A DNA stretch of 60,682 bases, taken from the NCBI GenBank assembly GCA_947591505.1, contig CANQDM010000002.1, positions 1 through 60,682 on the forward strand, in the 5' to 3' direction. Origin of the DNA: an uncultured Bacilli bacterium. GTDB taxonomy: Bacteria; Bacillota_I; Bacilli_A; RF39; UBA660. Under the pieces are notes generated by a model, which saw only the letters and a list, made by a program, of their open reading frames with translations, ran no database searches and was not told the origin of the DNA. Shown here piece after piece: positions 2,446 through 52,899 of this stretch (position 1 is its first letter; each line of letters starts with the position of its first letter). The position numbers and the translations under genes are program-made.

Positions 2446-3039
2446 CTAATATTTCATTTGATTAATTTGTTTACCAACTAAAACCACTTGATAACCTTTA
2501 TGGCTCTGATTACAAGTGATTAAAGTTATGTACCTTTCTTTATCAGTTATTATTACACTAGCTTTTCCTGTTTTTTCTATATCATATTTATCAAATATCT
2601 CGTATTCGTATTTTATACCATTATAATAAATATAAACCTTGTCATTGATATTAACTTTGACAAGGTTTTTAAAAAATGCAATTTTACTATTTCCTGAATG
2701 TGCATACAAAATAAAATTACCATTTGTATCTGGATATTTGCTAATATTATCAACACTTATTGCGTATTTAATAGAAGCAAAATTTTTAGTATTATCAACT
2801 ACACCTCTTTTTAAATTAATTGTTGGAATTTCTAATATTGCTGTATAATTTATATCTTTAGCATTTGATTTTTTAGGCTTTTCATTATCACTTTTATTAT
2901 TATTAATTACTGTTGTTTCAGTAATATAATTATTAACTTCCATATTTTCTCGTATTTCTAAAATAAATTTAGTAAAGAAGTATAAAAATATAAAAGTTAA
3001 ATTAACTATTAATATTATTATAGATATTTTTTTAATCAT
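2446..3039 (-). CDS. sortase-family transpeptidase
   Basis: N-terminal TM helix, catalytic His context ILYAHSG and TLxTC motif ITLITCN. Confidence 0.8.
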   Translation of the reverse strand: MIKKISIIILIVNLTFIFLYFFTKFILEIRENMEVNNYITETTVINNNKSDNEKPKKSNAKDINYTAILEIPTINLKRGVVDNTKNFASIKYAISVDNISKYPDTNGNFILYAHSGNSKIAFFKNLVKVNINDKVYIYYNGIKYEYEIFDKYDIEKTGKASVIITDKERYITLITCNQSHKGYQVVLVGKQINQMKY

Positions 3040-27752: not shown

Positions 27753-28162
27753 TATTTTGTTATTTCTGTATCAGTTTCTTCAAGGCTATCTTCATTATCA
27801 ACTGTTTTTTCTAAATCAAGGTTTTCAAATTTATCGACTTTATCTTCATTATAAAAAATAGTTGCTGGCTTGCCTTCTCTAACAATTTTAGATGTTTTAC
27901 CTATACTATGACCTGTTACACAAATCTTTGATCCTTTTTTAGATGCCTCACATAATTTTTCAGCATTTTCTTCCCATAAAGTATAATATAAGTGTTTAGA
28001 ATTATTTATACCTTCAACTGATAAAGTTATATTTACATATTTTATCCCAGTTGGTGTTTCTTTTAATTCCGGATCTTTAGTTAATGTGCCAATCGCATAA
28101 AAACAATTATTCTTATTTTTATCATTAATAGTTTCTTTTTTCTTAGTTGCCTTTTTTGCCAT
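27752..28162 (-). CDS. second SSB-like OB-fold protein
   Basis: NCFYAIGTLTKDPELKETPTGIKYVNITLSVEG...LWEENAEKL...KGSKICVTGH follows the SSB pattern. Confidence 0.55.
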   Translation of the reverse strand: MAKKATKKKETINDKNKNNCFYAIGTLTKDPELKETPTGIKYVNITLSVEGINNSKHLYYTLWEENAEKLCEASKKGSKICVTGHSIGKTSKIVREGKPATIFYNEDKVDKFENLDLEKTVDNEDSLEETDTEITK

Positions 28163-34533: not shown

Positions 34534-34535
34534 GA

Positions 34536-35657: not shown

Positions 35658-35791
35658 ATAAATCACCTCTGCAAGTGATTTATATCCTATCACAGTTATT
35701 TTATATTAGGTACTATGTATTTATACAAAGAAATTTGCAAAAATACAAACTTTTAATTTAAAGTAAATAAAAAATATTATTCTATTTTTTA

Positions 35792-36876: not shown

Positions 36877-37122
36877 TTATCTTTTTATATATTCCGAAAT
36901 TTTATCAGTATATTTTAAATTTATCTTTTTTTCTATTGCCTCTTTTAAAATTTCAATTTTTAATTCAGTATTAGGATTTTCATTCCAACTATTAGGAAAT
37001 AGTATAGTATCCCTTTCATACTCTGATATATTATTAAAATCATATATTTCACTCATCATTTTTATATATTTTGACTCTAATAAACTACATAATACATATT
37101 CTCTGTCAAATTCTTCTCTCAT
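36877..37122 (-). CDS. hypothetical small protein (81 aa), last gene of the effector operon
   Basis: TAATG overlap with the upstream gene. Confidence 0.5.
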   Translation of the reverse strand: MREEFDREYVLCSLLESKYIKMMSEIYDFNNISEYERDTILFPNSWNENPNTELKIEILKEAIEKKINLKYTDKISEYIKR

Positions 37123-37748
37123 TATACAATTCCCCTAATATTTTCAATTTTATCTTCAAAACCTTCTGATATTATAAATTCTATAGATGTATTAATTTTT
37201 GATTGAATTAAAATTGATATTTGTCCAAATAAAATTTTACAATAATTTTCAATCTTTTTGCCTTCTTCTATTGAACACTCTTTATCATTATAAGAAAATT
37301 CAAATACTATACTTCTTGAACTTGTTTTGTTTTTGTTTATTGGTGTTCCATAATATACAAAATCCCCATCTTCAAATAAAACTTTTTCTAATGTTTGTTG
37401 TAAATATTCTGGCGATAAATCGCAATTGTTCATTATTGCACCATAAATTTCATTTATTTCATCATCAGATAATCTTTCTATGTGAATATTGTTTCGCAAG
37501 AAAATGTATTTACTTCCTAATGATGAAAATTTTTTATAAAAATTATTATCAGAAATATCATTAGTTGGAATTTTTACATCTAACTTTTCAATTGATAAAT
37601 CTATATTATTGAAATAAACAATTGATTTTAATAAATTTTCAAAACTTTGTTTATATTTAACTTGTAGTTTTAAAAATTCATTTGCTGATATATTTTTTTG
37701 AAATAATTCCTTATAATCATAAGAATCTGGTAAATATCTATATTCCAT
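37122..37748 (-). CDS. candidate immunity protein for the giant effector
   Basis: ATG at 37748 with GGAGGT embedded in the last codons of the giant ORF; the call rests on position only. Confidence 0.45.
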   Translation of the reverse strand: MEYRYLPDSYDYKELFQKNISANEFLKLQVKYKQSFENLLKSIVYFNNIDLSIEKLDVKIPTNDISDNNFYKKFSSLGSKYIFLRNNIHIERLSDDEINEIYGAIMNNCDLSPEYLQQTLEKVLFEDGDFVYYGTPINKNKTSSRSIVFEFSYNDKECSIEEGKKIENYCKILFGQISILIQSKINTSIEFIISEGFEDKIENIRGIV

Positions 37749-37749
37749 C

Positions 37750-40700
37750 TTAACCTCCATTTATTATATTAAAAATTATACTATAAATTGATATACGAGT
37801 TGTATGACTATTTGGTATGAATCTATATTTTCCACTCCAAGATGAAACCATTAAATCACCATTTTCAAACATATCTGTAATTAGCATAGCATGACCGCCA
37901 ATATTTTTCAATGTTTTGCCTTCAATTTTTATGTGTGTTAATGCAGCATCATCTCCAACTGTTAAATTATTATCTAAAGATTCTAAATCAAATCCACTAC
38001 TTCCAAGAATCCAAAATCCTTTGTTATTTAATGAATTAATTACAATATCTTTTTTGTAATCTTCAAGGTCGAACATATTATGATTTAATTCTACATTTAT
38101 ACCTTTACTAGCAAAATAACTATTGGTAACAGTTTCATATATCATTGCACTCATTCCATGTGAATTTTTAAGTAACTCATCTATTGTACTATTATTTTCA
38201 ACAACTTTATGAATGTGTAAGTAAAAATCTAATGCTACAGCTTCTAAATTTGGAGATTTTGTTATTCCATCAGTTACACTCAAATTAAAGCCCATTTTTT
38301 CCAAAAATATATTAGAACCATTCTCAATACTATTCATATAAGTTATAAAGCTATTAGCTATTGCCATATATGCACAACCACATTCTTCATAAGCTTTAGC
38401 AATGTTTTTTAAATCTGTTTCTTGAGCATCAGGATAATAATTTTTTATTATTTTAATTAATATTTCGCTTTTTTGCCTATTTATTTCTGATAATTGTTCT
38501 CCAGATAAAGCTGAAACAACAATTTCTCTTACATCACTTTGATTTCCACCATAAGCATTATCTTTAAAAATTTCATTACTATTTTGGTATTTATTTATAT
38601 TAAATTGACTCTTTGGTAGGCTATCTAAATTAATTGGCTCTATTTTAAAATTAGTAGCATTATATAAATCATTTAAAGTAATAAAATTATCTAAATATAG
38701 AGTATCACCAATAGTTGGAAAATATTGTTCAAATTCTTGATTGTCAATTGTATAAGTTAACTTATAAACACTATATTTATCATCAACTTTTAGATCAAAA
38801 GTTGATTGAATAAATGGTTCAATAGAAATTATTTTTACACTATTTATTTGTTTGCTACGAGCTAATCTAGTCAAATCAGTTGATCCATATCTAAATCTAA
38901 CTAGATGTTTTTCTATCTCTCCATTTATTTCTAATGTAATAACATTTAAACCATCTTTTGTATTATCGTTTATACTTAAAGTGTTTTTTATAACATCTTC
39001 AGTTATGGACACTATTTTTAATTTATCAGATAATATTGCATCATATTGAGAAACTAATTCAGTTAACAAATCTAGTTTTCCATAACTCTTCATAGATTTT
39101 TTTATATATTCAATTCCATCAATTGTATATTTTATATCGAAGTATCCATCTTTTCTTATTGTAGCATCTGTTGGAATCTCAATAAGTGCATTACTAATAA
39201 TTTTATTGCATAAATTTTGTTTGGCTTTTTTATCAAAATTTCGCAATACTTCTTTCTGACTATCATATTCACCATGAAATCCAAACGGTAAACATTGCAA
39301 AACTTTAGCTGCTAATTGTGGATTATTTATCATTATATCATCATTACCATAATTTTTTAAAAATTCTTCAATAAAAATCGTACCACTATCGATATCAGCT
39401 TCTAAAGTTTTTCCTAAATCAAAGAAAACAGTTGAAAAAAAGTTTGACAATAATTTAGGATCTATTTTAAACAATTTGTTTCTAAAATTGTTAGAAATTA
39501 CTATAACATTACTATTATATTTAATAAATGCCTTAGCAATTTCTAAAAATTGTTCATCAGATAAAGAATCAAAGTAATTTGTTATTTCCTCATTATCAAA
39601 TATTTTTAATAATTCATCATTAGATAAACCATCAAATAATGAAGCAAATTTATTAGGAAGATCAGCCAAGTTTTTAGTAATAAAATAAGTTAATTTTTCG
39701 TGGCCAATTACCTTTCTTAACATTATTAAGTCATCTTCAATTAAATCATAAAATTGTTGATTACTTAATTTTAATAAAGAATTAGTTTCAATTAATTTAT
39801 CAATTATTCTTTCTTTTAGTTCAGTTAAATCTTTATAACCTTGTGGTAAAGTTTCCTCTGTTATATTTTTAATTTCCTTAATTAAATTATCAATTTCTCC
39901 ATTAGTATTAATTGTTGAAATAAGTCTATTTTCTAATAATTGTGATTCTTCTAAAATCCTTAAAATATTTGCATCATCAAATTTATTACTAACTAAATAT
40001 GTAGTAATGATATTAGCATTTAATTCAATTTTAGAATTATTTATTTCTATTAATCTTTTTAATTCTTTTAATCTATTAACATATTTCCCTTGCTGTTCAT
40101 CAAAAATCCATATAGCTTGTAAATCATTAATAGAAATTGCTCCCATTTGATTATCTGCAAGTTTATCAACTGAAACCTCTAATACAGGTCTTTTATCATA
40201 ATAATAAGTCTTATCACTACCTTGAGTCCAAAAAACTTCATTAATATGTCCACCCTTTAATTTGCCCTCTTTAGGTCTTACAAATCCTGAATTAAGTATA
40301 TCTGTAACTTGATTCATCCCTGTAACTCGATAAATACTATTTTCATTAGTTGCCATTGCAATTGGATTATTTTTTCCGAATGCAAGGCCACCTTTAAACA
40401 CTCTATTTCTAACATTAATTATTCTTTCTGAATCATCTAAATGTTCAACTGATGAAGGTGACATTTCCATGTAGTAAGCATTAGCTAGTTTTGGAATCTT
40501 TATTGAATTATCAATGACATCACTAATTATAGGTGAAATTGAACATTCATCTATTCGCTCAAAAAGTTTATCAATTTCATTAATACTAAACATTTTTTGC
40601 TCAAAGTCGCCATCATAACATAAAGTAATATAATCCTTATTATTTATATCTTCAATTCTAGCTTCAAATAACTCTAAAAATATTTTGTTAGGTACTTTGA

Positions 40701-43700
40701 TTACAATTTTTTTATTTGCAAAACAATTTATTGCATTTATGTTAAATACTATTTGATCAAAATTATAATTATTATGTAGAATATTTGGATTACCTGATAT
40801 ATTTTTGCTACTTAATACAATGGTATCAATTCCTTCAATTGTATCTGAAAATGGTGCTAGTATATTTCCATCTAAAAGTTCTTTTATGTATGGACTAAAT
40901 ATTAATTCATCCTCATCTGTTAAAACATCAATATCGGAAATATTACCTGTTTCAAAGAAATTAACAAATCCATTCCATATGTTCTCCATAAAATCTATAT
41001 AATCTTTACCTAATAAATTTTCTAACACATTAATATTTTGAGTTCCATATATTGCATCCATAAATTTCAATGTTGTATACGCCGCAACTTGTTCATTTAA
41101 TGATAAGCTAATTGCTGCAACATTTTTATAATAATCTTCTTCATGTTGATAAATTGTAGTATCTGGAGCTAGTCTTTCTATTTCACCGAATTGATTCACT
41201 AATACTAATTTATCAGATCCTAAAAACAAATCATGAAATAAACCGCTAATATCTGGATAACATACAGTTTGTTGATTTAACAAGTTACTTTTTATATTTG
41301 ATTTTATTTTTCTTGCTTCGTTTTCAAATACTTCTTTTCTATAATTTTCTAAAGCATTGTCATCAAATGTAGCATGACCATCAGTAGAATCAAATAATAT
41401 ATCTTGTAATGTTTGCTTATCTAAAGCTGCCACTTGTTCAGTTAAAATTTTCTCATAATTATTTAAAAATATTTGTTCTGTTTGTTCAGCAACTGATCCA
41501 TATGCAAAGTAAAAGTTTTTAAAAAATCTCGAAATTAAATCACTGTTTTTGCTTATATGATTTTGTACTTTAGACAATACTGATAAATAATTTCTAGGTA
41601 TTTTAGCTTTAAATATTGCATCAAACATAGAATGACCAAATTCATGAAAGAAAACTCTCATTTCATTAAAATTATCATATGCCTTATAGCCTACAAATAT
41701 TGGTTCATTTTTAGCTGTATATCCTTCTTCGGCTAAAGTAAACTTTACTCCAAAATTTTTGTTTAATGTTTTTATTTTTTCTATATTTGCTATTATTGTA
41801 GCAACATCACTTTTTCCATTTAATTTTGCTTTTTCTAAAACAGCACTCATTAAATTAGAAAAAGTTTTAGAAGCAACTGAATCATATAATCCTTCTCTAA
41901 AATATTTCTTTGTTTCTTCATATTCTTGTAATCCTATTTTTTTCGTATAAAATAATATTTTATCATCTGATGAATAAAGTTTTTTTATTGTTTCCAATTC
42001 TTCTAATGTTGTAGGAATAAATATTTTATAATCTGCATGTTCACTTAATACAACATATGATAATGTGCTATTATCCAATTTATCTACTATTTTTTCTATA
42101 TCAGATAAACTTTCTAATTTTATTTCATAACTTTCATTTTGGCTTGCTAAATCATTTGCCATTTCTATTTCATCAATAATATATTGTTCTTTTCTTTGCT
42201 TAAATACCTCTTCTAAATCTTCTGGTTTATAAATTTTTTTAGATGTTATATCGTATAAAAAATATTCTTCATTAAATAAATTAACATCATTAGTTACTTT
42301 TTCTAAAGATTCAAAATTATCAACAACATAAACATTCATTCCACTGCTTAATTTAAAAAGAATAGTTCTTGGATCAAGCAAAAAAGTAAATACATCAGTA
42401 TTAATTTTAAAGAACTCATCTTCAGAAATGCTAAATTCAAAACTATCAGGATACTTTATCATTGTTTCAGCTGCAAAAATTTTGTTTTCTAATTTGGTAT
42501 AATATTCCAATGAATTTTCTTCAGCAATTCTTTCTAAAATAAGATTTCTCATTGCATCATAATCATAAAATTCTCTTGTTTTTATATCAAAATATATTCG
42601 TGTTGAATATTTTCGTTGTAAATCACTTAACGATAATGGAATAACAATTTCTTGAACATTTTCCATATCATTTGGAAAAATTGAAATATTTTTACTAAAA
42701 TTAGCGAACGATTTAAGTATATCATCAGAAACAAATTTCAAATCATCATGATATTCAATATCTATACCATATGTTCCTAAACTACCACTTTCATTTATTT
42801 TATTAAGATCTTCAATAGCTTCATTTAATTCTTGTTCTAATAAATTGATTCTTCTTATATAAGAATTAGTTTCTAAATTACCAGATTTAATACTATCAAG
42901 TATACTTTTAGTAATAGAATCCAAATTTTCTTCTAAAACTAACTGAATATTTTCTTTAGAAAGCTTATTATTCCTTTTTAATTCTAAAAATTTATCTGCT
43001 ATTAGCTCTTTATTTTTATTAACAATATCAATAATAAGGGTAAATAATTTTACTGAATTATCATCTGTTCCTAAAAATGAATCAATTGATAATCCTAAAT
43101 AACTATATATAGAATGATAAGCAATATAATATTTATCATTAGCTGTAAGAGTATCTTCATAATCTAACATATCAATTTCATAAAATGGAAGATTATATTT
43201 TTTTGCCATTAAAATTGCTTTATTGTAATCTGAATTTAAATCTTTTTCTCCATAACCAATATAAAGTATTCCACAAGGTTTGGAATCAACTAAAACTTCA
43301 TTATATTGAGTGCTGAAATAAGGACTTTCTCCATTTTCTAAAGTTATTTTCATTCCTTCTTGTTCCAAAGCAGCTGGTGTTACTAAAATAGTACCTTTTT
43401 CTTTGTTCTTTATTCCTTTTCCAAAAACATTTGAATTTAAATCCCATGCACTAGCACTAATAATGTGAGAATCACTTGGATAAATAAATCCAATTCTTCT
43501 AGTTGTTGAGCCATAAGTAGCAATTAAATTAGAAGTTATTAAAGAAGTTGAATGTTGATCTTGTCTATTTATTAGATTGTCTGCTTGATAATTCAATGGT
43601 CCAAAAATATTAGAAAATAATACAGAAAAGTTTTTATCTTGTATAGAGCTATCTAATGAATTTTCCCATATTTTTTCAATTAAATCAGAATACTTTCTCT

Positions 43701-46700
43701 CTAATCTTTTTAAGCCATTTTCATTTTCTTTTAAATATTCATAATCCATAACTAAATCCAATTTTTCTTGATCAATTAATAAATCTCTATAATTTGGATT
43801 AGCAATTATAGATCTTAATGATGATAATGCTAAACTTAACCCTTCTTTACCAAATTTACCACTGTATGGGTTATCAGTCATAATGGTATCTACATTATTA
43901 TTTATAAAATTAATTAAAGTAGTCTCTAAAAAGTCAATTTGTTTTGATATAACAGAAATATCACCATCTAATGATATACTTTTTATGTATGGAATATATT
44001 CACTTAGTTGAGGATTATTTAAAAACACTTTGCTTTGCATTCCATATTTATATCTTATCGCATCCATTAAAATATATATGTCTTGTTCTTCAAAATTCAC
44101 TTCGATATTTTTAGATAATTTATTTTCCAATTCATAAAAATATTCTGTATCACTATAAAATTCAGATGATTCATTGTGCCAAAGCCAAGTTTCTTGTTCA
44201 AAAGTTCTAATCTCTTTTAAAATTCTTTCTTTATAAGCAGAATATTTTTTCAATCCAAAGTTGTAAGTAATATCTTCTTTAATATGTGTAGCATCACTTA
44301 AAACACTATCATACAATTTTTTATAATAATTTTCTGCCTTTATTGTATCAATTTTTATTGGTAAACCTTGGTTAAATTTAATTAACTCTTCACCTTTTAA
44401 AGAATAATAAAATCCTAAACTATACCTACTACTATCTTTAACAAAATCAAGAGAAAATGATGGATCATATATAACTACTGGTTCTGTTCCATAACCATTT
44501 GGATAAATTAAATTATAAGCATGATTTTCACCATTTCTAATACCTGATGCAAATTCAGAATCAATTCCTAAAAATTTAAATAAATTATGAGCAAGTCCAG
44601 CTTTTTCTGAACAAAATGCACAAGAATTAGCAATAATATCTCTTATAGAAACTTTTCCATCTTCTAAATGACTTGCATAACAATCAAGTCTTTTAAATCC
44701 TACATCATTTGAAGGTAAATAGTTATTTATAATTTCAAATATTTTAGTAAATAAAATTGGCTCATTATAATCATTTCCACTTTTTAAACTATTAATAAGT
44801 TCAATATAAGGTGATATATCATCATATACTAAGTCTGGACAGTCATGATTCATAATTTTATCAGCAGGTTTAAAATGAATAACCTCTGAAATGAAATTTT
44901 GAAAACTATCAGTATAATTTTGTCCCACAGTTTTTTCTTCACTAATACTTTCAAGTTCACTTAATCTTTCTTTAACAAATTCTTCAATTTCAGCAGGAGT
45001 CTTAAGATCAAAAATTCTTTCTTTTATTTTTTCTTTTAAAGGAATAGTATCCTCTGCATTTTCTGATGAATTATTTGAAGAAGGTGAATTTTCTGATTCA
45101 AGGGATGAATTTAAAATTTCTTCTATTCCAGACAATTTACTAGTTAATTCTTCACTTGTTACAGATTCACCATGAATAAAAGCCGAATCTAATTTTGCAT
45201 AATAACTAAATTCATTTGTTGAGCCATGCATTTCATTCTTAATATTTAATACAAATTCCACATCTATTTTATTAATCAACTCATAAATGTTTTGAATTTT
45301 TTGCATATTTGTACTTAGAACAAATGAATCGCTTACTGTAGTCCCAATTACTGAATTTAATATATTAAATAATTCACTATCATAATTATGAGGATAAAAA
45401 GCTATAGAGTATGGAATATCTCTTGATAAACTTTTTTGAAAAGAAAGGTCAAAATCATAACCATCCAATGCACTTAAAATACTTGGTAAATATTTAGAAA
45501 ATGTTGGAGTAATCTTGAAAGAAATATAAGGTGAATGTTCACCATATTCACCAATATGCCCTCCACAACTTGCATGTGTTTCAATACCATTTTGATAAGA
45601 TGTTAAAAGTAATGCTTCAAGTGCTTTATTTCCTTCAGCAAAATCATGAGCTGCTTTACTATAATCATCAATATCGGTTATATCAATTGGCTTACCATTA
45701 TTCATTCCCTTACTATCTGTATATATTTTTACATCTTTAAGAATTCCTCTTAATCTAGCTTTTGCTTTATCTTTCATATATTTAGAAATTTGCATTTCAA
45801 TAGTTCCATGTCTTAAGAAACTGATTTCGCTATCTGTTAATACTTCTCCATTTTTAGATTTTTGAACAACATCATAATATGCTTGTAATTCGCTACGATT
45901 TATTTCTAATACTTGAGCAAATTGTTGTGCTTTTGTCGTTCCATTCAATTTATTATACATATTATTAGCGATTGCATAACTTGCTCTTACAGTTGTTTTA
46001 GTACCTCCAAACGAACCAAAAGTTATACCAGATACAAATCCACCTAAAAATGCTTGAAAGGCTTGATTACTAAAATCTTTCATAGTTTTTATTAAAGCAG
46101 TATTTTCATCATCACCGTTTAAAATATAATTATTAATAGATTGAGTATAATTGCTTAAATCTTTTGCAATAAAGATATCAGCAACATAGTTTAAAATTTC
46201 TGTAGTAAATTCTTCTTCACCTTCAACAAATCCTTGACTTAAAGCTGATGCTCCCACATAAAAACTTTTAGTAACTAAATTAGCAATTGTTGGATTACTA
46301 ATATTGCTAGCAATTTTATTAGTTAATTTTAAAACATTTTCACTTAGTTTTTCTTCTAAATTCAATAAATGACTTACTGAATAGCTCTCCATTGCTGTTT
46401 CAACAACAGAAGATGTAAATGCTAAAGCAACAGCTTCACCATCTGATAGTCCTCTATCTAAAGCATCATTTAATGTAGAAACATAAGCTCTTGAACCCAT
46501 TGTTGCTGCACTTATTAAAGGTGTTGCTACTCCTCCAGTTGCTACACTAATTCCAATTAATTCAAGACTATCTATCATACTCATTCCTGTACTATACAAG
46601 AAAGATAAAGTTTCACTATTCTTAGCAATATCAGAAGCAACTTGTGTTCTCCATATATCACCAGAACTATATACATCTACTCTTCTTATTTTTTGACCAG

Positions 46701-48765
46701 TAAAATATGAATTTAGAGAATAATACATTGCTCCAATTCCTTCAAATGGAGTTATTAAAACAGATCCAATAGATGCTAATATTGGATGTTCACTAGCATA
46801 TTCTTGATCTTCCAATGTTTTATTGGCTAACCATCTTTTATCAACTTCACTTGATAATACATCATTTAAATAATTATATGCACCATCTATTCCTTCTGTA
46901 TTATAAATATAATTAAATATTAGTTTTTCTTCTTCGCTAACAAATGGTAGCCATTGTAGATAATGGTTAAATAAATCATCATTTGCAGTTACAGGAAATA
47001 AAACTCCATCAACAGATAAATAACCATTAGAAAGGTTTCCACCTTCACCATTAAGCATACAACTAATTAAATTTACAATTTCTTCTTTACTAGTTACTCT
47101 AATAGTTGGTATAGCATCATAATCAGATGGAGATATTATTTTATTTTTATTTGCTTCTTGTAATGCTTTTATTGTTTCTAGAGCTTCACTATTAAAAGTA
47201 TTATTAGTATCAAAATCATCTGCATGCAAATATGAATCAACATTATTAATGTAATAATCAACTTCTTCTTTTATTGCATCACATATGTTTTGATATGTAC
47301 TAACTTTGACCTCTAATTGCTTTATTTCTGAATTTATGTTTTCTAAATTTTCATTTCTATTATTTACTAAATCACCATATTTATCTGATATTGAATAAAA
47401 GTATTGTTCTTGAGCTTCTGTTTCTGTCCAACGATAAATTGTTTTTTCATTTTTTGAAAATAAAGGTTTAATAGTTTCTGCAGTTAAATTGGCTCGTAAT
47501 TCTGCAAGCAATTCGCTATCTTTATACATTTCTTCAAAGGTTAGCGGTGTATATGAAACATCATCTACATAACCAGACATATAAGGATCTTCATATTTAT
47601 AATTGATATTACCATTTTCATCAGTATATTCCCATGCTACAACTGTAGAATTTAAAATGTCATCTAAATTTTCGCCCATTTTAAGTCTAGTTATAAAATT
47701 CATTATAGCATCTATTTCATAATTTTCTGCTTCTAATTTTTGCTTATATAATTCATTTAATCTATTAGTATCATCATTTATTGCTTGCTCTAAATCTGTT
47801 ATATTATTATATTCTAAACCATATGCTTGCAAATATGAAGCATATATCATATCTACTCTTCTAGTATTATCTTCATCATTTTCTATTTGTTCAAATAATT
47901 CTTCTTGACTTATTTTTCCGTTTAATACTTGCTCTATATCCATCTCATTTAAGCCAAAAGATTCTAATAACATTCTATATGTATCAACATCTATTTCTGT
48001 AACAACTTCTTGTCCCCAGGAATTGATGGTAGTTATAGTAACTTTTGTAGCATCTTCAACATTATTATTACTAGCAGAACTATCAAACGAATTTTCAGGC
48101 ATATCAAAAGATACACCAGCACCACTATTGTTATTACCTTGATTAGCATTTTGATTGCTAGTCATATTAACATTAGTAGAAGATGATGTTTGATTAGATG
48201 TAGCATTATTATTTTTAGCATTAAATGGTGTTTTATTATCTTGTGGCTTAACATTCATATCATTTTGTGCTTTTGATTCATTATTACTTGATAAGCTATT
48301 TCCATTCATAGTAGAATTGGAATTTTGATTTGTAGAATTAATATCAGGTGCTTTTGAAGAATCAACATTAGTTGAATTATTTATATTACTACTATCATTT
48401 AAATTAGAATTATTACTAGTTTGATTAACTTGTTGTTGAGATGCATCATTAACTTGAGAAGATCCAGAAGTTGTAGGACCAGAAGAAGCACTTGTATTTG
48501 TGGTTGATACTGAATCAGCTGTTTTGCTTTCATCCACAGTAGTCGAAAAATCCATAGTTTCTGTTTGACTACTCGATCTTCCTCCATATGTATTTGCAGT
48601 TCCAGCATTATAATTTTGGGGTGCTTCGCTTTGTGTAGAAGTTAAACTAGCTTTTTCACTTTTATTTGCATCAGAATATAACTTATCTAATTTTACATCT
48701 TCAAAATCTACTGATGCATTAACGCCATCTATTTGTTTTGCACCAGATACACCAAAATTACTCAT
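37750..48765 (-). CDS. giant (3,671 aa) multidomain putative secreted effector/toxin
   Basis: Uninterrupted 11-kb ORF. S/N/T/Q-rich N-terminal ~200 aa. Transglutaminase-like Cys1385/His1415/Asp1434. HEFGH at 2374-2378 (41632..41646). C-terminal papain-like Cys3464 (GCAYMA), His3625 (GGHAMLIT), SSWSG. Confidence 0.8.
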   Translation of the reverse strand: MSNFGVSGAKQIDGVNASVDFEDVKLDKLYSDANKSEKASLTSTQSEAPQNYNAGTANTYGGRSSSQTETMDFSTTVDESKTADSVSTTNTSASSGPTTSGSSQVNDASQQQVNQTSNNSNLNDSSNINNSTNVDSSKAPDINSTNQNSNSTMNGNSLSSNNESKAQNDMNVKPQDNKTPFNAKNNNATSNQTSSSTNVNMTSNQNANQGNNNSGAGVSFDMPENSFDSSASNNNVEDATKVTITTINSWGQEVVTEIDVDTYRMLLESFGLNEMDIEQVLNGKISQEELFEQIENDEDNTRRVDMIYASYLQAYGLEYNNITDLEQAINDDTNRLNELYKQKLEAENYEIDAIMNFITRLKMGENLDDILNSTVVAWEYTDENGNINYKYEDPYMSGYVDDVSYTPLTFEEMYKDSELLAELRANLTAETIKPLFSKNEKTIYRWTETEAQEQYFYSISDKYGDLVNNRNENLENINSEIKQLEVKVSTYQNICDAIKEEVDYYINNVDSYLHADDFDTNNTFNSEALETIKALQEANKNKIISPSDYDAIPTIRVTSKEEIVNLISCMLNGEGGNLSNGYLSVDGVLFPVTANDDLFNHYLQWLPFVSEEEKLIFNYIYNTEGIDGAYNYLNDVLSSEVDKRWLANKTLEDQEYASEHPILASIGSVLITPFEGIGAMYYSLNSYFTGQKIRRVDVYSSGDIWRTQVASDIAKNSETLSFLYSTGMSMIDSLELIGISVATGGVATPLISAATMGSRAYVSTLNDALDRGLSDGEAVALAFTSSVVETAMESYSVSHLLNLEEKLSENVLKLTNKIASNISNPTIANLVTKSFYVGASALSQGFVEGEEEFTTEILNYVADIFIAKDLSNYTQSINNYILNGDDENTALIKTMKDFSNQAFQAFLGGFVSGITFGSFGGTKTTVRASYAIANNMYNKLNGTTKAQQFAQVLEINRSELQAYYDVVQKSKNGEVLTDSEISFLRHGTIEMQISKYMKDKAKARLRGILKDVKIYTDSKGMNNGKPIDITDIDDYSKAAHDFAEGNKALEALLLTSYQNGIETHASCGGHIGEYGEHSPYISFKITPTFSKYLPSILSALDGYDFDLSFQKSLSRDIPYSIAFYPHNYDSELFNILNSVIGTTVSDSFVLSTNMQKIQNIYELINKIDVEFVLNIKNEMHGSTNEFSYYAKLDSAFIHGESVTSEELTSKLSGIEEILNSSLESENSPSSNNSSENAEDTIPLKEKIKERIFDLKTPAEIEEFVKERLSELESISEEKTVGQNYTDSFQNFISEVIHFKPADKIMNHDCPDLVYDDISPYIELINSLKSGNDYNEPILFTKIFEIINNYLPSNDVGFKRLDCYASHLEDGKVSIRDIIANSCAFCSEKAGLAHNLFKFLGIDSEFASGIRNGENHAYNLIYPNGYGTEPVVIYDPSFSLDFVKDSSRYSLGFYYSLKGEELIKFNQGLPIKIDTIKAENYYKKLYDSVLSDATHIKEDITYNFGLKKYSAYKERILKEIRTFEQETWLWHNESSEFYSDTEYFYELENKLSKNIEVNFEEQDIYILMDAIRYKYGMQSKVFLNNPQLSEYIPYIKSISLDGDISVISKQIDFLETTLINFINNNVDTIMTDNPYSGKFGKEGLSLALSSLRSIIANPNYRDLLIDQEKLDLVMDYEYLKENENGLKRLERKYSDLIEKIWENSLDSSIQDKNFSVLFSNIFGPLNYQADNLINRQDQHSTSLITSNLIATYGSTTRRIGFIYPSDSHIISASAWDLNSNVFGKGIKNKEKGTILVTPAALEQEGMKITLENGESPYFSTQYNEVLVDSKPCGILYIGYGEKDLNSDYNKAILMAKKYNLPFYEIDMLDYEDTLTANDKYYIAYHSIYSYLGLSIDSFLGTDDNSVKLFTLIIDIVNKNKELIADKFLELKRNNKLSKENIQLVLEENLDSITKSILDSIKSGNLETNSYIRRINLLEQELNEAIEDLNKINESGSLGTYGIDIEYHDDLKFVSDDILKSFANFSKNISIFPNDMENVQEIVIPLSLSDLQRKYSTRIYFDIKTREFYDYDAMRNLILERIAEENSLEYYTKLENKIFAAETMIKYPDSFEFSISEDEFFKINTDVFTFLLDPRTILFKLSSGMNVYVVDNFESLEKVTNDVNLFNEEYFLYDITSKKIYKPEDLEEVFKQRKEQYIIDEIEMANDLASQNESYEIKLESLSDIEKIVDKLDNSTLSYVVLSEHADYKIFIPTTLEELETIKKLYSSDDKILFYTKKIGLQEYEETKKYFREGLYDSVASKTFSNLMSAVLEKAKLNGKSDVATIIANIEKIKTLNKNFGVKFTLAEEGYTAKNEPIFVGYKAYDNFNEMRVFFHEFGHSMFDAIFKAKIPRNYLSVLSKVQNHISKNSDLISRFFKNFYFAYGSVAEQTEQIFLNNYEKILTEQVAALDKQTLQDILFDSTDGHATFDDNALENYRKEVFENEARKIKSNIKSNLLNQQTVCYPDISGLFHDLFLGSDKLVLVNQFGEIERLAPDTTIYQHEEDYYKNVAAISLSLNEQVAAYTTLKFMDAIYGTQNINVLENLLGKDYIDFMENIWNGFVNFFETGNISDIDVLTDEDELIFSPYIKELLDGNILAPFSDTIEGIDTIVLSSKNISGNPNILHNNYNFDQIVFNINAINCFANKKIVIKVPNKIFLELFEARIEDINNKDYITLCYDGDFEQKMFSINEIDKLFERIDECSISPIISDVIDNSIKIPKLANAYYMEMSPSSVEHLDDSERIINVRNRVFKGGLAFGKNNPIAMATNENSIYRVTGMNQVTDILNSGFVRPKEGKLKGGHINEVFWTQGSDKTYYYDKRPVLEVSVDKLADNQMGAISINDLQAIWIFDEQQGKYVNRLKELKRLIEINNSKIELNANIITTYLVSNKFDDANILRILEESQLLENRLISTINTNGEIDNLIKEIKNITEETLPQGYKDLTELKERIIDKLIETNSLLKLSNQQFYDLIEDDLIMLRKVIGHEKLTYFITKNLADLPNKFASLFDGLSNDELLKIFDNEEITNYFDSLSDEQFLEIAKAFIKYNSNVIVISNNFRNKLFKIDPKLLSNFFSTVFFDLGKTLEADIDSGTIFIEEFLKNYGNDDIMINNPQLAAKVLQCLPFGFHGEYDSQKEVLRNFDKKAKQNLCNKIISNALIEIPTDATIRKDGYFDIKYTIDGIEYIKKSMKSYGKLDLLTELVSQYDAILSDKLKIVSITEDVIKNTLSINDNTKDGLNVITLEINGEIEKHLVRFRYGSTDLTRLARSKQINSVKIISIEPFIQSTFDLKVDDKYSVYKLTYTIDNQEFEQYFPTIGDTLYLDNFITLNDLYNATNFKIEPINLDSLPKSQFNINKYQNSNEIFKDNAYGGNQSDVREIVVSALSGEQLSEINRQKSEILIKIIKNYYPDAQETDLKNIAKAYEECGCAYMAIANSFITYMNSIENGSNIFLEKMGFNLSVTDGITKSPNLEAVALDFYLHIHKVVENNSTIDELLKNSHGMSAMIYETVTNSYFASKGINVELNHNMFDLEDYKKDIVINSLNNKGFWILGSSGFDLESLDNNLTVGDDAALTHIKIEGKTLKNIGGHAMLITDMFENGDLMVSSWSGKYRFIPNSHTTRISIYSIIFNIINGG

Positions 48766-48805: not shown

Positions 48806-49048
48806 TTAATATGATTTTCTTAATGTACTATATCTACTATTAGAAATGGATGTTGCAGAACTTGATAAAGATTTTTTTATGTTATTAATTGCATCACCAT
48901 TATATGTTTTATCATTTATTAAAATTGTTCTATTCATAGTATTTTCTAATTGTTGAACACTTTGATTTAAATTATTTATTTGATTAGTTATTAAATATAA
49001 TCTATACGAAATATTTGCATATTTTTTCTTTTTTACTGCATCATCCAT
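48806..49048 (-). CDS. small helical protein (effector-associated, candidate chaperone/adaptor)
   Basis: ATG at 49048 with GGTGA 8 nt upstream, right after the previous stop; the call rests on position. Confidence 0.45.
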   Translation of the reverse strand: MDDAVKKKKYANISYRLYLITNQINNLNQSVQQLENTMNRTILINDKTYNGDAINNIKKSLSSSATSISNSRYSTLRKSY

Positions 49049-49049
49049 T

Positions 49050-49346
49050 TTAAATATCACCATCAAATCTATTTATTGTTTCTATACTTACTCTATCATA
49101 TCTAGCAATTGCATTACTTAATATATTCACATATTTAGCTCTTTTAGTTGAAATTTTAGAAACGCTAGTTTTACTATCGATTATTTTTTCTAAAAAATCA
49201 GCCGTATTAGATGTATTATAATTTCTTAAACATAATTGCATTTTTTCAAATATTTTACCTAATACCTGCTTTTCTTCTTCTGAATAATAATTAATTTGTT
49301 CAATATTTTTTTCTAATAACGATTTATTTAAAATATTCTCATTCAT
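49050..49346 (-). CDS. small helical protein (98 aa, effector-associated)
   Basis: Tiled ORF between the WXG-like genes and the giant gene. Confidence 0.5.
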   Translation of the reverse strand: MNENILNKSLLEKNIEQINYYSEEEKQVLGKIFEKMQLCLRNYNTSNTADFLEKIIDSKTSVSKISTKRAKYVNILSNAIARYDRVSIETINRFDGDI

Positions 49347-49349
49347 ATA

Positions 49350-49925
49350 CTATTCTCCTAAATAAAAGTCAAAATCATTTATTTTAATTGCTTCTAAAGC
49401 ATTTATTTTGTTTTTTACTTCTTTTTCTATATTTTCTATTTTATTAAATAAATTAACTACTTGGGTTTTAATCGTAGATAGTTTATTTCTTACACCAACA
49501 ATTACATCTTTTTGAAGTGATATGCTATATATTTCAGAATAATAAAAACTTCTATCAATGTAATTAAAACTATTAATTATATTTGATGCTTTATTATAAC
49601 AATCATCTATTTGACCAAGTAAGGAATTTTTATTATTCAAATTACATTTTATTTTGTTTCCAAATTCATGGTATTTAGTATATACTAATTCAAATATTTC
49701 TTTTTTAGATTTTAGTGCTTGCAAAAACAAATCAGATTCTTGCTTTTCCAAATAAATCTCATTATCAAATTTAACAGAATTACCATCTTGCCAATTAATA
49801 CAACTATCTTTTAATTGATTAAATAGATTTAATTTAATATTTTCGTATTCATCAATTAAAGCGGTTAATCCCATTATGTTATTGCTTAATTCTCCCATAT
49901 CAACATCTATTATAATTACCACCAT
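49350..49925 (-). CDS. WXG-motif-containing helical protein (191 aa; start uncertain)
   Basis: INWQDGNSVKF resembles the W-x-G turn of WXG100 proteins; no good RBS at any of the first three ATGs. Confidence 0.45.
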   Translation of the reverse strand: MVVIIIDVDMGELSNNIMGLTALIDEYENIKLNLFNQLKDSCINWQDGNSVKFDNEIYLEKQESDLFLQALKSKKEIFELVYTKYHEFGNKIKCNLNNKNSLLGQIDDCYNKASNIINSFNYIDRSFYYSEIYSISLQKDVIVGVRNKLSTIKTQVVNLFNKIENIEKEVKNKINALEAIKINDFDFYLGE

Positions 49926-49998: not shown

Positions 49999-50682
49999 CT
50001 ATTCACCAGTAGTATTATTGAAAGCATCTGAGATACCTGAAGATACTTCTTGGTATTTTTGAACAGCTTTATTAATTTGACCTTGTAATGATTCTTCTCC
50101 ATCAGTTAAATATTTAAATATTTTATGAAGTTCACCACTTACAGTTACAAAGCATTGTTTTAATGCTTCACCTTGTCCATGACCAATGAAAGCACTTTCA
50201 GCATCTAGATTATTTGCTAAAGTTTCAAGATCAGATTTGATTCCTTCTTCAACTTCACCTAATCTACTTGCAATTTGACTTGCTTGTCCTTCTTCAATTG
50301 TTACATTACCAGCATTTTCAGGTTGAATATCAGAAACATTTAAAGTTAGATCTACAGTATCGATTGTTGCCAAGCTAGGAATTTCTCCTCCTGTATTTTC
50401 AGCCCAATTCTTTCCTGCACTTTCAACTGCTCCTCTATAAGCATCAAATGCTTGTGTAATATTTTCTCCAGATGCTTTTACTGTTTGAGCAAATCCATTG
50501 AAGAAATCTACTGCTTCTGGAGCATACCATACTGTAGACATAGGAACAATAATATCGCTATGTAATCTTTCTACGATATTTTGTCCAGCTTGTTGTGCAG
50601 TAGAATTAATTACATCTCTTAGTGCATTTACTTGTTCACAATTATATCCAGATGTTTCTCCAGATCCACCAAATAAACCCAT
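49999..50682 (-). CDS. WXG100-superfamily / LXG-like T7SS substrate candidate (227 aa)
   Basis: ATG at 50682 with GGGAGGAG 6 nt upstream. Helical, A/Q/E/G-rich and GC-richer than its surroundings. VWYAPEAVDFF lies at the position of the WXG turn. First gene after the promoter. Confidence 0.55.
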   Translation of the reverse strand: MGLFGGSGETSGYNCEQVNALRDVINSTAQQAGQNIVERLHSDIIVPMSTVWYAPEAVDFFNGFAQTVKASGENITQAFDAYRGAVESAGKNWAENTGGEIPSLATIDTVDLTLNVSDIQPENAGNVTIEEGQASQIASRLGEVEEGIKSDLETLANNLDAESAFIGHGQGEALKQCFVTVSGELHKIFKYLTDGEESLQGQINKAVQKYQEVSSGISDAFNNTTGE

Positions 50683-50764
50683 AATTTCACTCCTCCCATT
50701 ATTAAAAAGTTTATTTTCCGATAAACAAAACATTACTACGAATACCTTATCTATCTATAAGAAA

Positions 50765-52632: not shown

Positions 52633-52899
52633 TTACTCTTTAGATGTCAAAAGTATTAACTCAGTTATATTTCTTATATTTGTGTCGATAACGACTTTAT
52701 TATTATTGTATACTTCACTAGTTAATTTATTCATTAAAATATAATTTGCATTTGGGTTTAAAACTCCTCCTGTTAAATCAGAAACTGATTTAGCAAGCAT
52801 TTTTTTTATTTTCCAAACAATTTCATTAACAGGTATAAACACATCAAATGAATAACCGATTTCCGGAACAAATAATTTTATTAAAACTTTATTATTCAT
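52633..52899 (-). CDS. esaB: YukD/EsaB-like ubiquitin-fold T7SS protein
   Basis: 88 aa. VLIKLFVPEIGYSFDVFIPVNEIVWKIKKML...ILMNKLTSEVYNNNKVVIDTNIRNITELILL fits the beta-grasp YukD pattern. ATG 52899 overlaps the essC stop by 8 nt. Confidence 0.6.
   Translation of the reverse strand: MNNKVLIKLFVPEIGYSFDVFIPVNEIVWKIKKMLAKSVSDLTGGVLNPNANYILMNKLTSEVYNNNKVVIDTNIRNITELILLTSKE

Follow-up and report, generated by a model that had tools for sequence, protein, structure and literature searches.

A giant mosaic protein with three peptidase-type modules, encoded near essC in an ICE-dominated window of a Bacilli contig, as a candidate multi-effector toxin

We analysed a 60,682-nt stretch of DNA (the window) that carries a single open reading frame of 3,671 codons, whose product we interpret, with moderate confidence, as a polymorphic toxin that combines several effectors, depends on EssC and is accompanied by two immunity genes. 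Genes of an integrative conjugative element (ICE) dominate the window. A polymorphic toxin or type VII effector had already been proposed in the initial annotation, and this reading is strengthened by (i) downstream genes that are each linked to one module of the protein and (ii) relatives of its HEXXH module that lie in essC and DUF4176 loci.

The giant ORF (37750..48765, minus strand) encodes a protein of 3,671 aa, about 417 kDa and pI 4.6, and is a real gene. The single unbroken frame of 11,016 nt described in the initial annotation was recovered: it begins with ATG, is preceded by a ribosome-binding site of the GGTGGTGA type and continues uninterrupted through 3,671 codons to its stop. The base composition of the window yields a stop in ~10% of random-frame codons, so that 3,671 stop-free codons are expected by chance with a probability of only ~1e-173, and homologues exist at the protein level. 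The protein contains 16 Cys residues in all, and every motif quoted previously lies at the residue that had been given for it, with CSEKAG...ASG at 1385–1408, NHAYNLIY at 1414–1421, VIYDPS at 1431–1436, FFHEFGHSMFD at 2372–2382, AEQTEQ at 2426–2431, CGCAYMAIAN at 3462–3471, GGHAMLITD at 3623–3631 and SSWSG at 3641–3645. No relative of the whole protein was found in the genome collection, and sequence and profile searches of the PDB gave nothing meaningful for the whole protein, for the two modules that we term A and B, or for the C-terminal domain.

Judged by its homologues, the protein is a mosaic: at least six modules can be told apart by their differing homologue sets, and modules are found in other genomes either on their own as complete proteins or as the one C-terminal domain of a toxin. 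Three of them keep the catalytic residues of predicted peptidases, namely a transglutaminase-like Cys-His-Asp peptidase, an HExxH zincin and a papain-like Cys-His peptidase. These three protease-type signatures, first pointed out in the initial annotation, stand up to comparison both of conservation among homologues and of folds, the papain-like fold matches and the M3 profile match being weak. At the N-terminus, a short leading segment is followed by a Ser/Asn/Thr-rich low-complexity linker (residues ~40–240; 48046..48648, minus strand), in which neither a signal peptide nor an LXG domain nor any family match was found. Neither Pfam (E up to 1) nor NCBIfam (E up to 0.1) reported an LXG or WXG targeting domain anywhere in the protein, in agreement with the earlier statement that it has no N-terminal LXG-type domain. 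Further along, the module at residues 1949–2284 (41914..42921, minus strand), for which we assign no function, has as its sole match a metagenomic fragment (P0001, 87% identical), and no homologue was found for the helical and mixed, uncharacterised region at residues ~2613–3199 (39169..40929, minus strand). Three repeats of 55–65 aa of the type Y-x-I/L-x-Y-x-I/V-D/N-G (residues ~3200–3395; 38581..39168, minus strand) precede the C-terminal domain and also occur in the homologues L004, P0239 and P0241.

Module A (residues 1290–1512; 44230..44898, minus strand) is a predicted transglutaminase-like cysteine peptidase domain with the triad Cys1385/His1415/Asp1434. His1415 and Asp1434 are retained in all of 37 homologues, Cys1385 in at least 90% of them; Transglut_core (Pfam) matches 28 of the 37 family members, in every case below the curated cut-off. 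The predicted structure has a pLDDT of 91.6 and in the PDB is matched best by 4xz7 (TGase), 3isr (cysteine protease), LapG, TG2 and factor XIII; probabilities reach 1.0, at an E-value of only 5.6e-3. The model indicates a transglutaminase/papain-like core fold, and the core that had been read from the Cys, His and Asp motifs is thus borne out, with TGase-fold proteases as the top model matches. Module A also occurs on its own, as a family of ~278-aa proteins from low-GC Bacillota that comprises at least 123 clusters at 90% identity. These stand-alone homologues are of cytoplasmic type, lie in housekeeping contexts (between rnr and smpB; near lexA) and have no partner gene. The adjoining module B (residues 1512–1949; 42919..44232, minus strand), to which the homologue search assigned no function, likewise exists as a family of stand-alone proteins, here of ~450 aa.

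Conservation supports a putative zincin-type peptidase module at residues 2285–2612 (40930..41913, minus strand). The giant protein has a single HExxH motif (~0.04 expected by chance; 3.5% of shuffled sequences contain one), and H2374, E2375 and H2378 of HEFGH 2374–2378 are invariant in five homologues, as are H2541, Y2545, Y2546 and E2558; Glu2443 is kept as Glu or Asp. The module profile matches the M3 zinc peptidase Dcp weakly at the motif (E 0.01). The zinc site proposed within FFHEFGHSMFD thereby gains support from both lines, whereas the third ligand proposed alongside it does not: the homologues do not conserve AEQTEQ (2426–2431), which is therefore unlikely to bind zinc, and Glu2558 is invariant instead. 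The same module forms the C-terminal domain of two other proteins, at loci L038 and L039. Near the HEXXH-ending toxin, L038 encodes essC, DUF4176 (3.5e-28) and a ubiquitin-like gene, and L039 two DUF4176 genes; DUF4176 serves type VII secretion toxins as a chaperone (PMC12482557). Directly after the HEXXH-ending toxin in both loci lies a homologue of the 81-aa ORF of the window (36877..37122, minus strand), which makes this ORF, by gene linkage, the candidate immunity protein for the HEXXH module and a member of an immunity-like partner family of ~80–90 aa.

The C-terminal domain (residues 3390–3671; 37753..38598, minus strand) resembles papain-like (C39-type) cysteine peptidase toxins. Cys3464, His3625 and SSW 3641–3643 are invariant in four sequences, in which no invariant Asp or Asn follows His3625. 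The sequence G-C-x-Y-M-A around the Cys is one that we take to resemble that of C39 peptidases. Papain has NSW at the position of SSW, and we could not recognise the Gln and Asn that are canonical for papain. The model, built from only four sequences, has a pLDDT of 80.9; in the fold search it came closest to toxins and viral proteins of papain-like type, at E-values of 3.6e-3 to 7e-2 and TM-scores of ~0.2–0.3, among them the Citrobacter rodentium CdiA-CT toxin (8ssk, 8ssm) and 9l5u, an entry titled "Papain-like cysteine protease toxin/immunity pair". Of the papain-like C-terminus described earlier, the Cys, His and SSW hold as invariant residues, and the fold match to papain-like toxins is weak.

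Linked to this domain is a 212-aa ORF (37122..37760, minus strand), its candidate immunity protein. It adjoins the C-terminal domain in three of three loci, the window, L004 (38% identity, 2e-49) and L006 (44% identity, followed by a further paralogue), and represents a partner family of ~210 aa. Its start lies either 11 nt before the stop of the giant ORF or, more likely, 1 nt after it at Met5 (nt 37748), which is the start position of the homologues (sequence GGAGGTTAAGATG). The 212-aa ORF in turn shares its stop with the start codon of the 81-aa ORF (TAATG). The giant gene and the small ORFs after it are thus tightly coupled, as had been noted. Comparison with other genomes shows each putative immunity gene linked to one module, the 212-aa gene to the C-terminal domain and the 81-aa gene to the HEXXH module.

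The annotated essC gene 4 kb upstream was recovered as a 1,525-aa type VII secretion FtsK/SpoIIIE-family ATPase (52892..57469, minus strand) that lies 4.1 kb upstream of the giant ORF on the same strand and matches TIGR03928 at equivalog level (932 bits against a cut-off of 778). It is 38% identical over its full length to the EssC-like ATPase of L038, and the 98-aa ORF directly after it (52633..52929, minus strand) is 33% identical (E 4e-14) to the small post-essC gene of that locus. Nothing closer to essC and its small partner was found than this L038 pair, and L038 encodes a single-warhead toxin that ends in the same HEXXH module. The 98-aa protein had no Pfam or PDB match; its position alone suggests an EsaB/YukD-like ubiquitin-fold role. 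Four small ORFs directly precede the giant gene, where the initial annotation had placed WXG-like and small helical genes: an 86-aa ORF (48806..49066, minus strand) and a 98-aa ORF (49050..49346, minus strand), both candidate helical partners, a 191-aa ORF (49350..49925, minus strand), a candidate WXG/Lap-like partner, and a 244-aa ORF (49999..50733, minus strand) with a weak WXG100 match (E 0.0028, residues 146–230). None of the four matches DUF3130, DUF3958 or DUF4176 or has similarity to a known Lap, PDB searches with the 191-aa, 244-aa and post-essC 98-aa proteins gave nothing meaningful, and the upstream helical proteins were rejected as counterparts of the L038 partners for lack of similarity.

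No EssB (YukC), EsaA or EssA was recognised on any scanned ORF of the window, and an IS30-type element, which may disturb expression of the type VII locus, lies between the essC pair and the substrate genes. Variant type VII systems without EsaA, EssA and EssB exist; minimal or variant systems comprise an ATPase, a ubiquitin-like protein and a WXG100 protein, and their toxins are flanked by small WXG-like genes and immunity genes (PMC11217815). The order essC, small helical genes, toxin and immunity genes recurs in relatives of the locus.

The setting is that of a mobile element. ICE-type genes dominate the window and extend over at least 0.1–31 kb (serine recombinase, sortase, VirD4, VirB4, M23 hydrolase, primase, SSB and a TED/SpaA adhesin), and AbiEii and other toxin-antitoxin or defence genes are also present. 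The window contains no tRNA genes, and neither the locus nor the insertion sequence had a megablast match among plasmids. A second link to mobile elements comes from the giant protein itself. Its Gly-rich, moderately hydrophobic domain at residues ~640–940 (45946..46848, minus strand) is homologous (tblastn E 4e-12) to the conserved N-terminal part of a polyvalent-type protein of an Oscillospiraceae prophage, and the N-terminal half has no other significant match in the databases. The gene of this prophage protein comes directly behind those for terminase and portal and is itself followed by genes for a WHH nuclease and a SUKH immunity protein; the protein has LPD23 and zincin domains and combines a conserved 640-aa N-terminus with a variable C-terminus. 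The 22 metagenome and 5 viral matches of the Gly-rich domain belong to one prophage lineage and count as one independent observation, not 27. Presence of this domain in the L039 toxin was not supported (hhalign E 0.23). In tblastn searches of residues 251–3000 and 2701–3671 against plasmids and phages, a Subdoligranulum match was the only one.

These mobile-element ties bear on the alternative, raised in the initial annotation, that the giant is a polyvalent protein of the conjugative element. VirD4/VirB4 would bring it into the recipient together with the DNA, and once there its peptidases and other modules would counter the defences of the host or assist establishment of the element; the essC module would then be an unrelated cargo locus. 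The extent of ICE-type genes, the many unrelated modules including a zincin, which fit the definition of polyvalent proteins (PMC5512222), and the homology of residues ~640–940 to the LPD23- and zincin-bearing prophage protein all speak for it, and the last of these adds to what had originally been proposed. Yet the giant itself has no LPD family match and lacks ArdC-N, a domain that 93% of conjugative-type polyvalent proteins carry (PMC5512222), and the Gly-rich domain that it shares belongs to the phage rather than the conjugative type. Two module-linked immunity-like genes downstream also argue against carriage with the DNA, as do the relatives of the HEXXH module and the 81-aa gene, which occur in essC and/or DUF4176 loci; a search of the 10 kb around the related toxins showed no homologues of type IV secretion genes. 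We consider this alternative unlikely.

If the shared domain points to phages, the giant could instead be a head-packaged or ejection protein of phage type, prophage-derived or borrowed, and delivered by a virion or phage-like particle. The variable C-terminus of the matched post-terminase/portal protein and the nuclease and immunity genes behind it fit this idea, but no terminase, portal, capsid or tail genes were found in the 60-kb window, neither the giant nor its neighbours match a PHROG, and tblastn of residues 251–3000 against deposited phages and scans of IMG/VR viral contigs with module A and the C-terminal domain were all empty; such an origin is highly improbable. Quite unlikely, too, is that the protein stays inside the cell as a cytoplasmic multi-enzyme, for example an abortive-infection or defence effector with the 212- and 81-aa proteins as antitoxins, or that it is a decaying remnant. 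The cytoplasmic-type stand-alone homologues of module A, the lack of a signal peptide or known targeting domain, the missing EssB and EsaA, the IS30 element inside the locus and the neighbouring toxin-antitoxin and defence genes such as AbiEii would be consistent with it. Against it, an 11-kb ORF that is intact in DNA with so many random stop codons argues for ongoing selection, the essC/helical/toxin/immunity layout recurs in relatives, and C-terminal cassettes with arrays of immunity paralogues, as in L006, are typical of exported polymorphic toxins.

For the EssC-dependent toxin, which we regard as the probable reading, we propose the following course. The essC gene, the small gene after it, the WXG-like gene and the small upstream helical genes would form a divergent type VII module whose EssC exports the giant protein. 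Because the giant has no LXG domain, the targeting signal would be supplied in trans by the separately encoded WXG-like and helical proteins. The Gly-rich domain might aid entry into or across the membrane of the target cell. The HEXXH and C-terminal cysteine peptidase modules would act as toxins on cytoplasmic targets, and the 81-aa and 212-aa proteins would neutralise the respective modules in sibling cells. The role of the transglutaminase-like peptidase would more probably be to process the polyprotein into its active parts than to kill, since its stand-alone homologues have housekeeping positions and no partner gene. MARTX toxins are likewise giant polypeptides with several effector modules and an internal cysteine peptidase that could release them. 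The likeness would be one of function only: the giant has no sequence relationship to them, no RTX repeats and no type I secretion, and its autoprocessing is conjectural. The full version of this proposal is more doubtful and we put it forward tentatively, namely that a type VII ATPase module among ICE genes exports a 417-kDa polyprotein in which a phage-style polyvalent protein, reflected in the shared Gly-rich entry domain and the chain of unrelated enzyme modules, and a polymorphic toxin have merged, with one immunity gene per warhead, targeting in trans and its own peptidases cutting out several toxins in or on the target cell.

Several findings count against the EssC-dependent reading. 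No recognised type VII targeting domain is present, EssB, EsaA and EssA were not recognised, and the upstream small proteins provide only one weak WXG100 match. The ICE-dominated window and the IS30-type element that splits the locus weigh in the same direction, as do the weak fold E-values of two domains (3.6e-3 to 5.6e-3). The sole domain with significant homologues outside the toxin group points, moreover, to a phage protein of polyvalent type. The size of 3,671 aa is a further argument against export, the characterised type VIIb substrates known to us all being several-fold smaller.

Compared with LXG-type type VIIb toxins (TelA-C, EsaD, EsxX; variants T7SSc-j, PMC11217815), the giant locus is alike in the same-strand essC nearby with its following small gene, in candidate WXG-like or helical small genes upstream, in an immunity-like gene after a C-terminal toxin-type domain and in one module whose relatives lie in essC and DUF4176 loci. 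It differs in having no LXG domain, in a length several times greater, in at least two toxin-type modules each with a candidate immunity gene, in further enzyme-like modules, in the unrecognised EssB, EsaA and EssA nearby and in its place among ICE genes. With polyvalent proteins (Iyer et al. 2017, PMC5512222) it has in common a very long chain of unrelated modules including a zincin and its encoding by a mobile element, and with the polyvalent and MuF-type phage toxins (PMC5512222; Zhang et al. 2012, PMC3482391) a domain of ~300 aa that also occurs in the LPD23/zincin post-portal protein. In contrast to these proteins, it has no ArdC-N, MuF or LPD match and does have immunity-like partners and linkage to essC; of the four peptidase superfamilies named for polyvalent proteins, none is papain-like or transglutaminase-like (PMC5512222). 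The C-terminal Cys/His peptidase domain with its adjacent immunity-type gene recalls the Cpe1-type papain-like (C39-like) interbacterial protease toxins and Tox-PLC39 (PMC12136450, PMC3482391), and C. rodentium CdiA is among the carriers of papain-like protease toxin domains (PMC12136450). Sequence identity is, however, only 10–11%, the fold E-values are only ~4e-3 to 2e-2, no conserved Asp or Asn was found as third residue, and its large helical N-terminal subdomain sets it apart. It also lies in a Gram-positive type VII context and not in one of type VI secretion or contact-dependent inhibition.

The modules and their partners define uncharacterised families: (i) a transglutaminase-like peptidase family of ~278 aa, (ii) a family of ~450 aa, (iii) a zincin toxin module with its ~80–90-aa partner and (iv) a papain-like toxin domain with its ~210-aa partner. 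To our knowledge, characterised Gram-positive type VII toxins carry one warhead on an LXG domain. The candidate described here breaks three habits, in that it has no LXG domain, combines several enzyme modules with at least two immunity-like partners, and shares a domain with a phage post-portal protein. If its export is true, it would greatly exceed all other type VIIb-like substrates in size, would be the first toxin among them to lack an LXG domain of its own, and would broaden the range of cargo for the type VII machine. It would also provide an evolutionary link between phage polyvalent proteins and polymorphic toxins, and would mean that a conjugative element carries its own interbacterial weapon, favouring the cells that carry it.

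The giant ORF (48765 to 37750, minus strand) opens with an ATG, is preceded by a GGTGGTGA-type ribosome-binding site and runs through 3,671 codons to one terminal stop, within a window of ~24% G+C whose minus strand carries nearly all genes. Stop codons are expected in ~10% of codons of a random frame of this composition, and the probability that a frame of this length stays open by chance is therefore ~1e-173. The initial annotation had described one uninterrupted ORF with three protease signatures, and 8/8 of the quoted motifs lie at the residues it named. HExxH occurs once in the giant vs ~0.04 expected, and 3.5% of shuffled sequences contain one.

No curated family (Pfam, NCBIfam, PHROGs) reached its threshold on the whole protein, and no solved structure matched it by sequence. 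Queried exhaustively with residues 1290-2489, HMMER returned 122 proteins in distinct sets, each covering one segment: stand-alone proteins of ~278 aa for residues 1290-1512 (module A), stand-alone proteins of ~450 aa for residues 1512-1949, a single fragment of 87% identity for residues 1948-2278, and the C-terminal parts of 403-aa and 982-aa proteins for residues ~2290-2435. The last 282 residues, used as a query of their own, retrieved 3 homologues. Because each set covers one segment and the C-terminal domain has homologues of its own, the giant is a chain of modules found singly elsewhere.

In a 37-sequence alignment of module A, Cys1385 is present in ≥90% and His1415 and Asp1434 in 100% of sequences; 28/37 family members match Pfam Transglut_core below threshold and 6/37 match the CEP76 peptidase-like family. 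The confident AlphaFold model (pLDDT 91.6, pTM 0.89) has its top PDB matches in a bacterial TGase (4xz7), a putative cysteine protease (3isr), LapG, transglutaminase 2, factor XIII and PNGase, with probabilities up to 1.0 but E-values of only 5.6e-3 or weaker. The proposed transglutaminase-like signature is thus borne out by conservation of Cys-His-Asp and by the resemblance of the model to TGase-fold and cysteine protease structures. Stand-alone relatives of ~278 aa (L009 and L010, 7001-7846; L001, 10001-10885; L007 and L008, 7001-7855) conserve Cys-His-Asp and belong to a large uncharacterised family without a Pfam entry, comprising, in metagenomes of low-GC Bacillota, at least 123 clusters formed at 90% identity. 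They lie in ordinary chromosomal surroundings without a partner gene or secretion genes, which argues that module A is not a self-toxic warhead. One to two loci place the gene between rnr (RNase R) and smpB, a hint that it is linked to housekeeping or RNA quality control and not to toxicity; other relatives are found close to lexA or amid housekeeping genes. Two further relatives, P0065 and P0083, carry a fused N-terminal sigma-70 region-4 type domain; the catalytic Cys is absent in P0083 and the spacing around it is changed in P0065, and both look like inactive or repurposed versions.

For the HEXXH module (residues 2285-2612), a 5-sequence alignment leaves H2374, E2375, G2377, H2378, P2390, Y2393, H2541, Y2545, Y2546, E2558 and A2561 invariant, and the top matches of the module profile are solely M3 zinc peptidases, aligned at the motif with E 0.01. 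The zinc site postulated by the initial annotation is thereby upheld in its HExxH core, whereas the third ligand suggested with it, AEQTEQ, is not conserved among the five sequences. The best candidate for this ligand is Glu2558 in the motif [N/H]-E-x-x-A, followed by Glu2443 (Glu or Asp in 5/5).

The C-terminal domain (residues 3390-3671) retains, in 4 sequences, invariant Cys3464 in G-C-x-Y-M-A, His3625 in G-x-H-x-M-x-I-T, and V-S-S-W-S; no conserved Asp/Asn follows His3625 in this alignment. Its model, built on a shallow alignment of four sequences (pLDDT 80.9), has its best matches in the Citrobacter rodentium CdiA-CT toxin (8ssk, 8ssm), 9l5u ("Papain-like cysteine protease toxin/immunity pair"), a Josephin-type ubiquitin clippase and CtaG; the viral models that it resembles are papain C1A, AvrRpt2-like and calpain-like proteins. 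The E-values of these matches are weak (3.6e-3 to 7e-2). The papain-like assignment holds to the extent of a conserved Cys/His and a plausible predicted fold. A precedent is Cpe1, a papain-like (C39-type) protease toxin that is passed between bacteria and cuts GyrB and ParE (PMC12136450), and the domain classes of polymorphic toxins include Tox-PLC39 and Tox-TGase (PMC3482391).

Downstream of the giant gene, a 212-aa ORF starts at the giant's stop or 1 nt past it, with GGAGG upstream of its Met5, where its homologues begin; the start codon of the following 81-aa ORF overlaps the 212-aa ORF stop. A homologue of the 212-aa gene lies directly 3' of the C-terminal domain in 2/2 other readable loci: in L004 (38% identity, 2e-49), a frameshifted part of a larger homologue with pre-toxin repeats as in the giant, and in L006 (44% identity), where the domain stands alone as a 320-aa ORF, followed by the small partner gene and then a second paralogue. 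Homologues of the 81-aa gene directly follow genes for HEXXH-ending proteins in L038 (31%, 3e-5) and L039 (34%, 1e-3), and the three-way alignment of these small proteins has 16 invariant columns. By linkage, the 212-aa and 81-aa genes appear to be immunity-like partners, each of one module. Polymorphic toxin systems likewise place one partner gene per toxic module after the toxin gene.

Upstream of the giant gene, the genes run in the order essC (52892..57469, minus strand; TIGR03928, 932 bits vs a cut-off of 778), a 98-aa ORF (52633..52929), an IS30-type element, a 244-aa ORF that matches WXG100 weakly (E 0.0028), and ORFs of 191, 98 and 86 aa; apart from the IS30-type element, all share the strand of the giant gene. 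As called, the 98-aa ORF overlaps the essC 3' end by 38 nt (52892-52929). Its alignment with a homologue starts at residue 13, with Met8 and Met11 just ahead; translation probably begins at one of these two Met codons, which would reduce the overlap to only 8 or 17 nt. The apparently intact IS30-type element (51071-52317, plus strand; 398-aa transposase with an HTH_38 domain; 29-nt terminal inverted repeats, 83% complementary) lies on the strand opposite to these genes and separates the essC/98-aa pair from the WXG-like gene; its insertion could split the operon. EssB, EsaA and EssA families were recognised nowhere in the window.

A compact type VII locus in an uncultured Clostridia genome (L038, 8896-19110) comprises, in this order, a 204-aa ORF in which a W-x-G motif was spotted by eye, a helical 125-aa ORF, a 1,212-aa toxin with the HEXXH module at its C-terminus, a 90-aa partner, DUF4176 (3.5e-28), an EssC-like, FHA-containing ATPase and an 83-aa gene. 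The window EssC is 38% identical to this ATPase over its full length, vs ~30% for the best plasmid-borne EssC, and the 98-aa ORF after essC is 33% identical to the 83-aa gene (E 4e-14). In L039, from an uncultured Bacilli genome, two DUF4176 genes lie immediately 5' of a 1,283-aa toxin with an HEXXH C-terminus. DUF4176 proteins are chaperones for type VII secretion toxins (PMC12482557); variant type VII systems consist of an ATPase plus a ubiquitin-like and a WXG100 protein, and their toxins have small WXG-like and immunity genes alongside (PMC11217815). The relatedness of the essC pairs, DUF4176, these variant layouts and the lack of type IV secretion homologues near L038 or L039 favour EssC-dependent export of the giant. 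L038 and the window may belong to a common, unclassified type VII subtype.

Building on the established gene, its modular make-up, its conserved catalytic residues, the module–partner linkages and the kinship with L038, we propose that the giant would be synthesised in the cytoplasm, where the 212-aa and 81-aa proteins would restrain its two putatively toxic peptidase modules. Separately encoded WXG-like and helical partners may allow its recognition in trans, and the EssC machine would export it. A Gly-rich domain could then help it insert into or cross the neighbour's envelope, and its own peptidases, with the transglutaminase-like module as best candidate, may cut it into active modules. 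We hold this reading of an EssC-exported, partner-restrained, self-processing giant toxin to be somewhat better than an even bet.

The membrane-entry step relates to residues ~640-940, where a hydropathy scan marks two moderately hydrophobic, Gly-rich stretches and a third was seen by eye at ~905-925; a role in entry is conjectural. In a search of the whole plasmid collection, this region is homologous (E 4e-12) to a 1,121-aa Subdoligranulum plasmid protein that also has LPD23 and zincin motifs. The same phage-type protein (~1,050-1,120 aa) occurs in 5 IMG/VR and 22 gut-metagenome contigs, which represent one prophage lineage and are therefore treated as a single independent observation; across these 27 contigs, conservation is 90-99% over the first 640 residues and the remainder is variable. 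In Oscillospiraceae (Subdoligranulum-type) prophage or plasmid regions, its gene lies just 3' of terminase and portal genes, which in L012 (4640-16487) encode the large terminase and a portal of P22-like type; next come genes for LPD23 proteins, a WHH nuclease and a SUKH immunity protein in L012, or for a TNT-like protein in L005 (849-12376). This is where phage genomes usually carry genes for head-packaged proteins, and from the gene position we assume the phage protein to be head-packaged. By published definitions (PMC5512222, PMC3482391), the lineage's protein counts among phage-type polyvalent or polymorphic proteins, and this phage-borne polymorphic system seems to merit its own study. 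By sequence, then, the giant and a phage protein have a domain in common; its gene context makes the giant a member of a type VII locus. Phage-style packaging of the giant itself is highly improbable.

Delivery through a conjugation channel would fit the ICE-type gene set on the minus strand (147-31016), which includes a serine recombinase with a LysM insert (147..2138), a VirD4-type coupling protein (3036..5318), a VirB4-type ATPase (22389..24866), a 957-aa thioester/SpaA adhesin (28143..31016), sortase, DUF2958, an N6/N4 DNA methylase, primase, an M23 hydrolase/peptidase and SSB. Pfam recognised no relaxase in this set, and the window has no tRNA genes. Beyond the 212-aa and 81-aa ORFs, between toxin locus and adhesin gene, a LysR regulator, a radical-SAM protein and a 507-aa NUDIX-domain protein (33010-36676, minus strand) look like cargo. 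The conjugative module also holds, distant from the giant gene, a SUFU-family protein (10341-11099) and an AbiEii toxin-type nucleotidyltransferase (12211-12942), both on the minus strand; the SUFU family serves as polymorphic-toxin immunity. With type IV homologues lacking at L038 and L039, we regard the conjugative route as unlikely. A non-exported or decaying protein, with which the IS30-type insertion would accord, is slightly less likely still; against it stands the intact 11-kb frame.

LXG toxins are defined by an LXG domain and typical polyvalent proteins by ArdC-N, MuF or LPD; the giant matches none of these and is therefore assigned to neither family. Taken singly, its ingredients are known: polymorphic toxins of type VII systems, toxin or processing domains of papain-like, TGase-like and zincin type, immunity genes and polyvalent proteins. 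To our knowledge, their combination in an LXG-less protein of 3,671 residues, with at least two putative warheads that have their own partners, a phage-type domain and an ICE setting, is undescribed.
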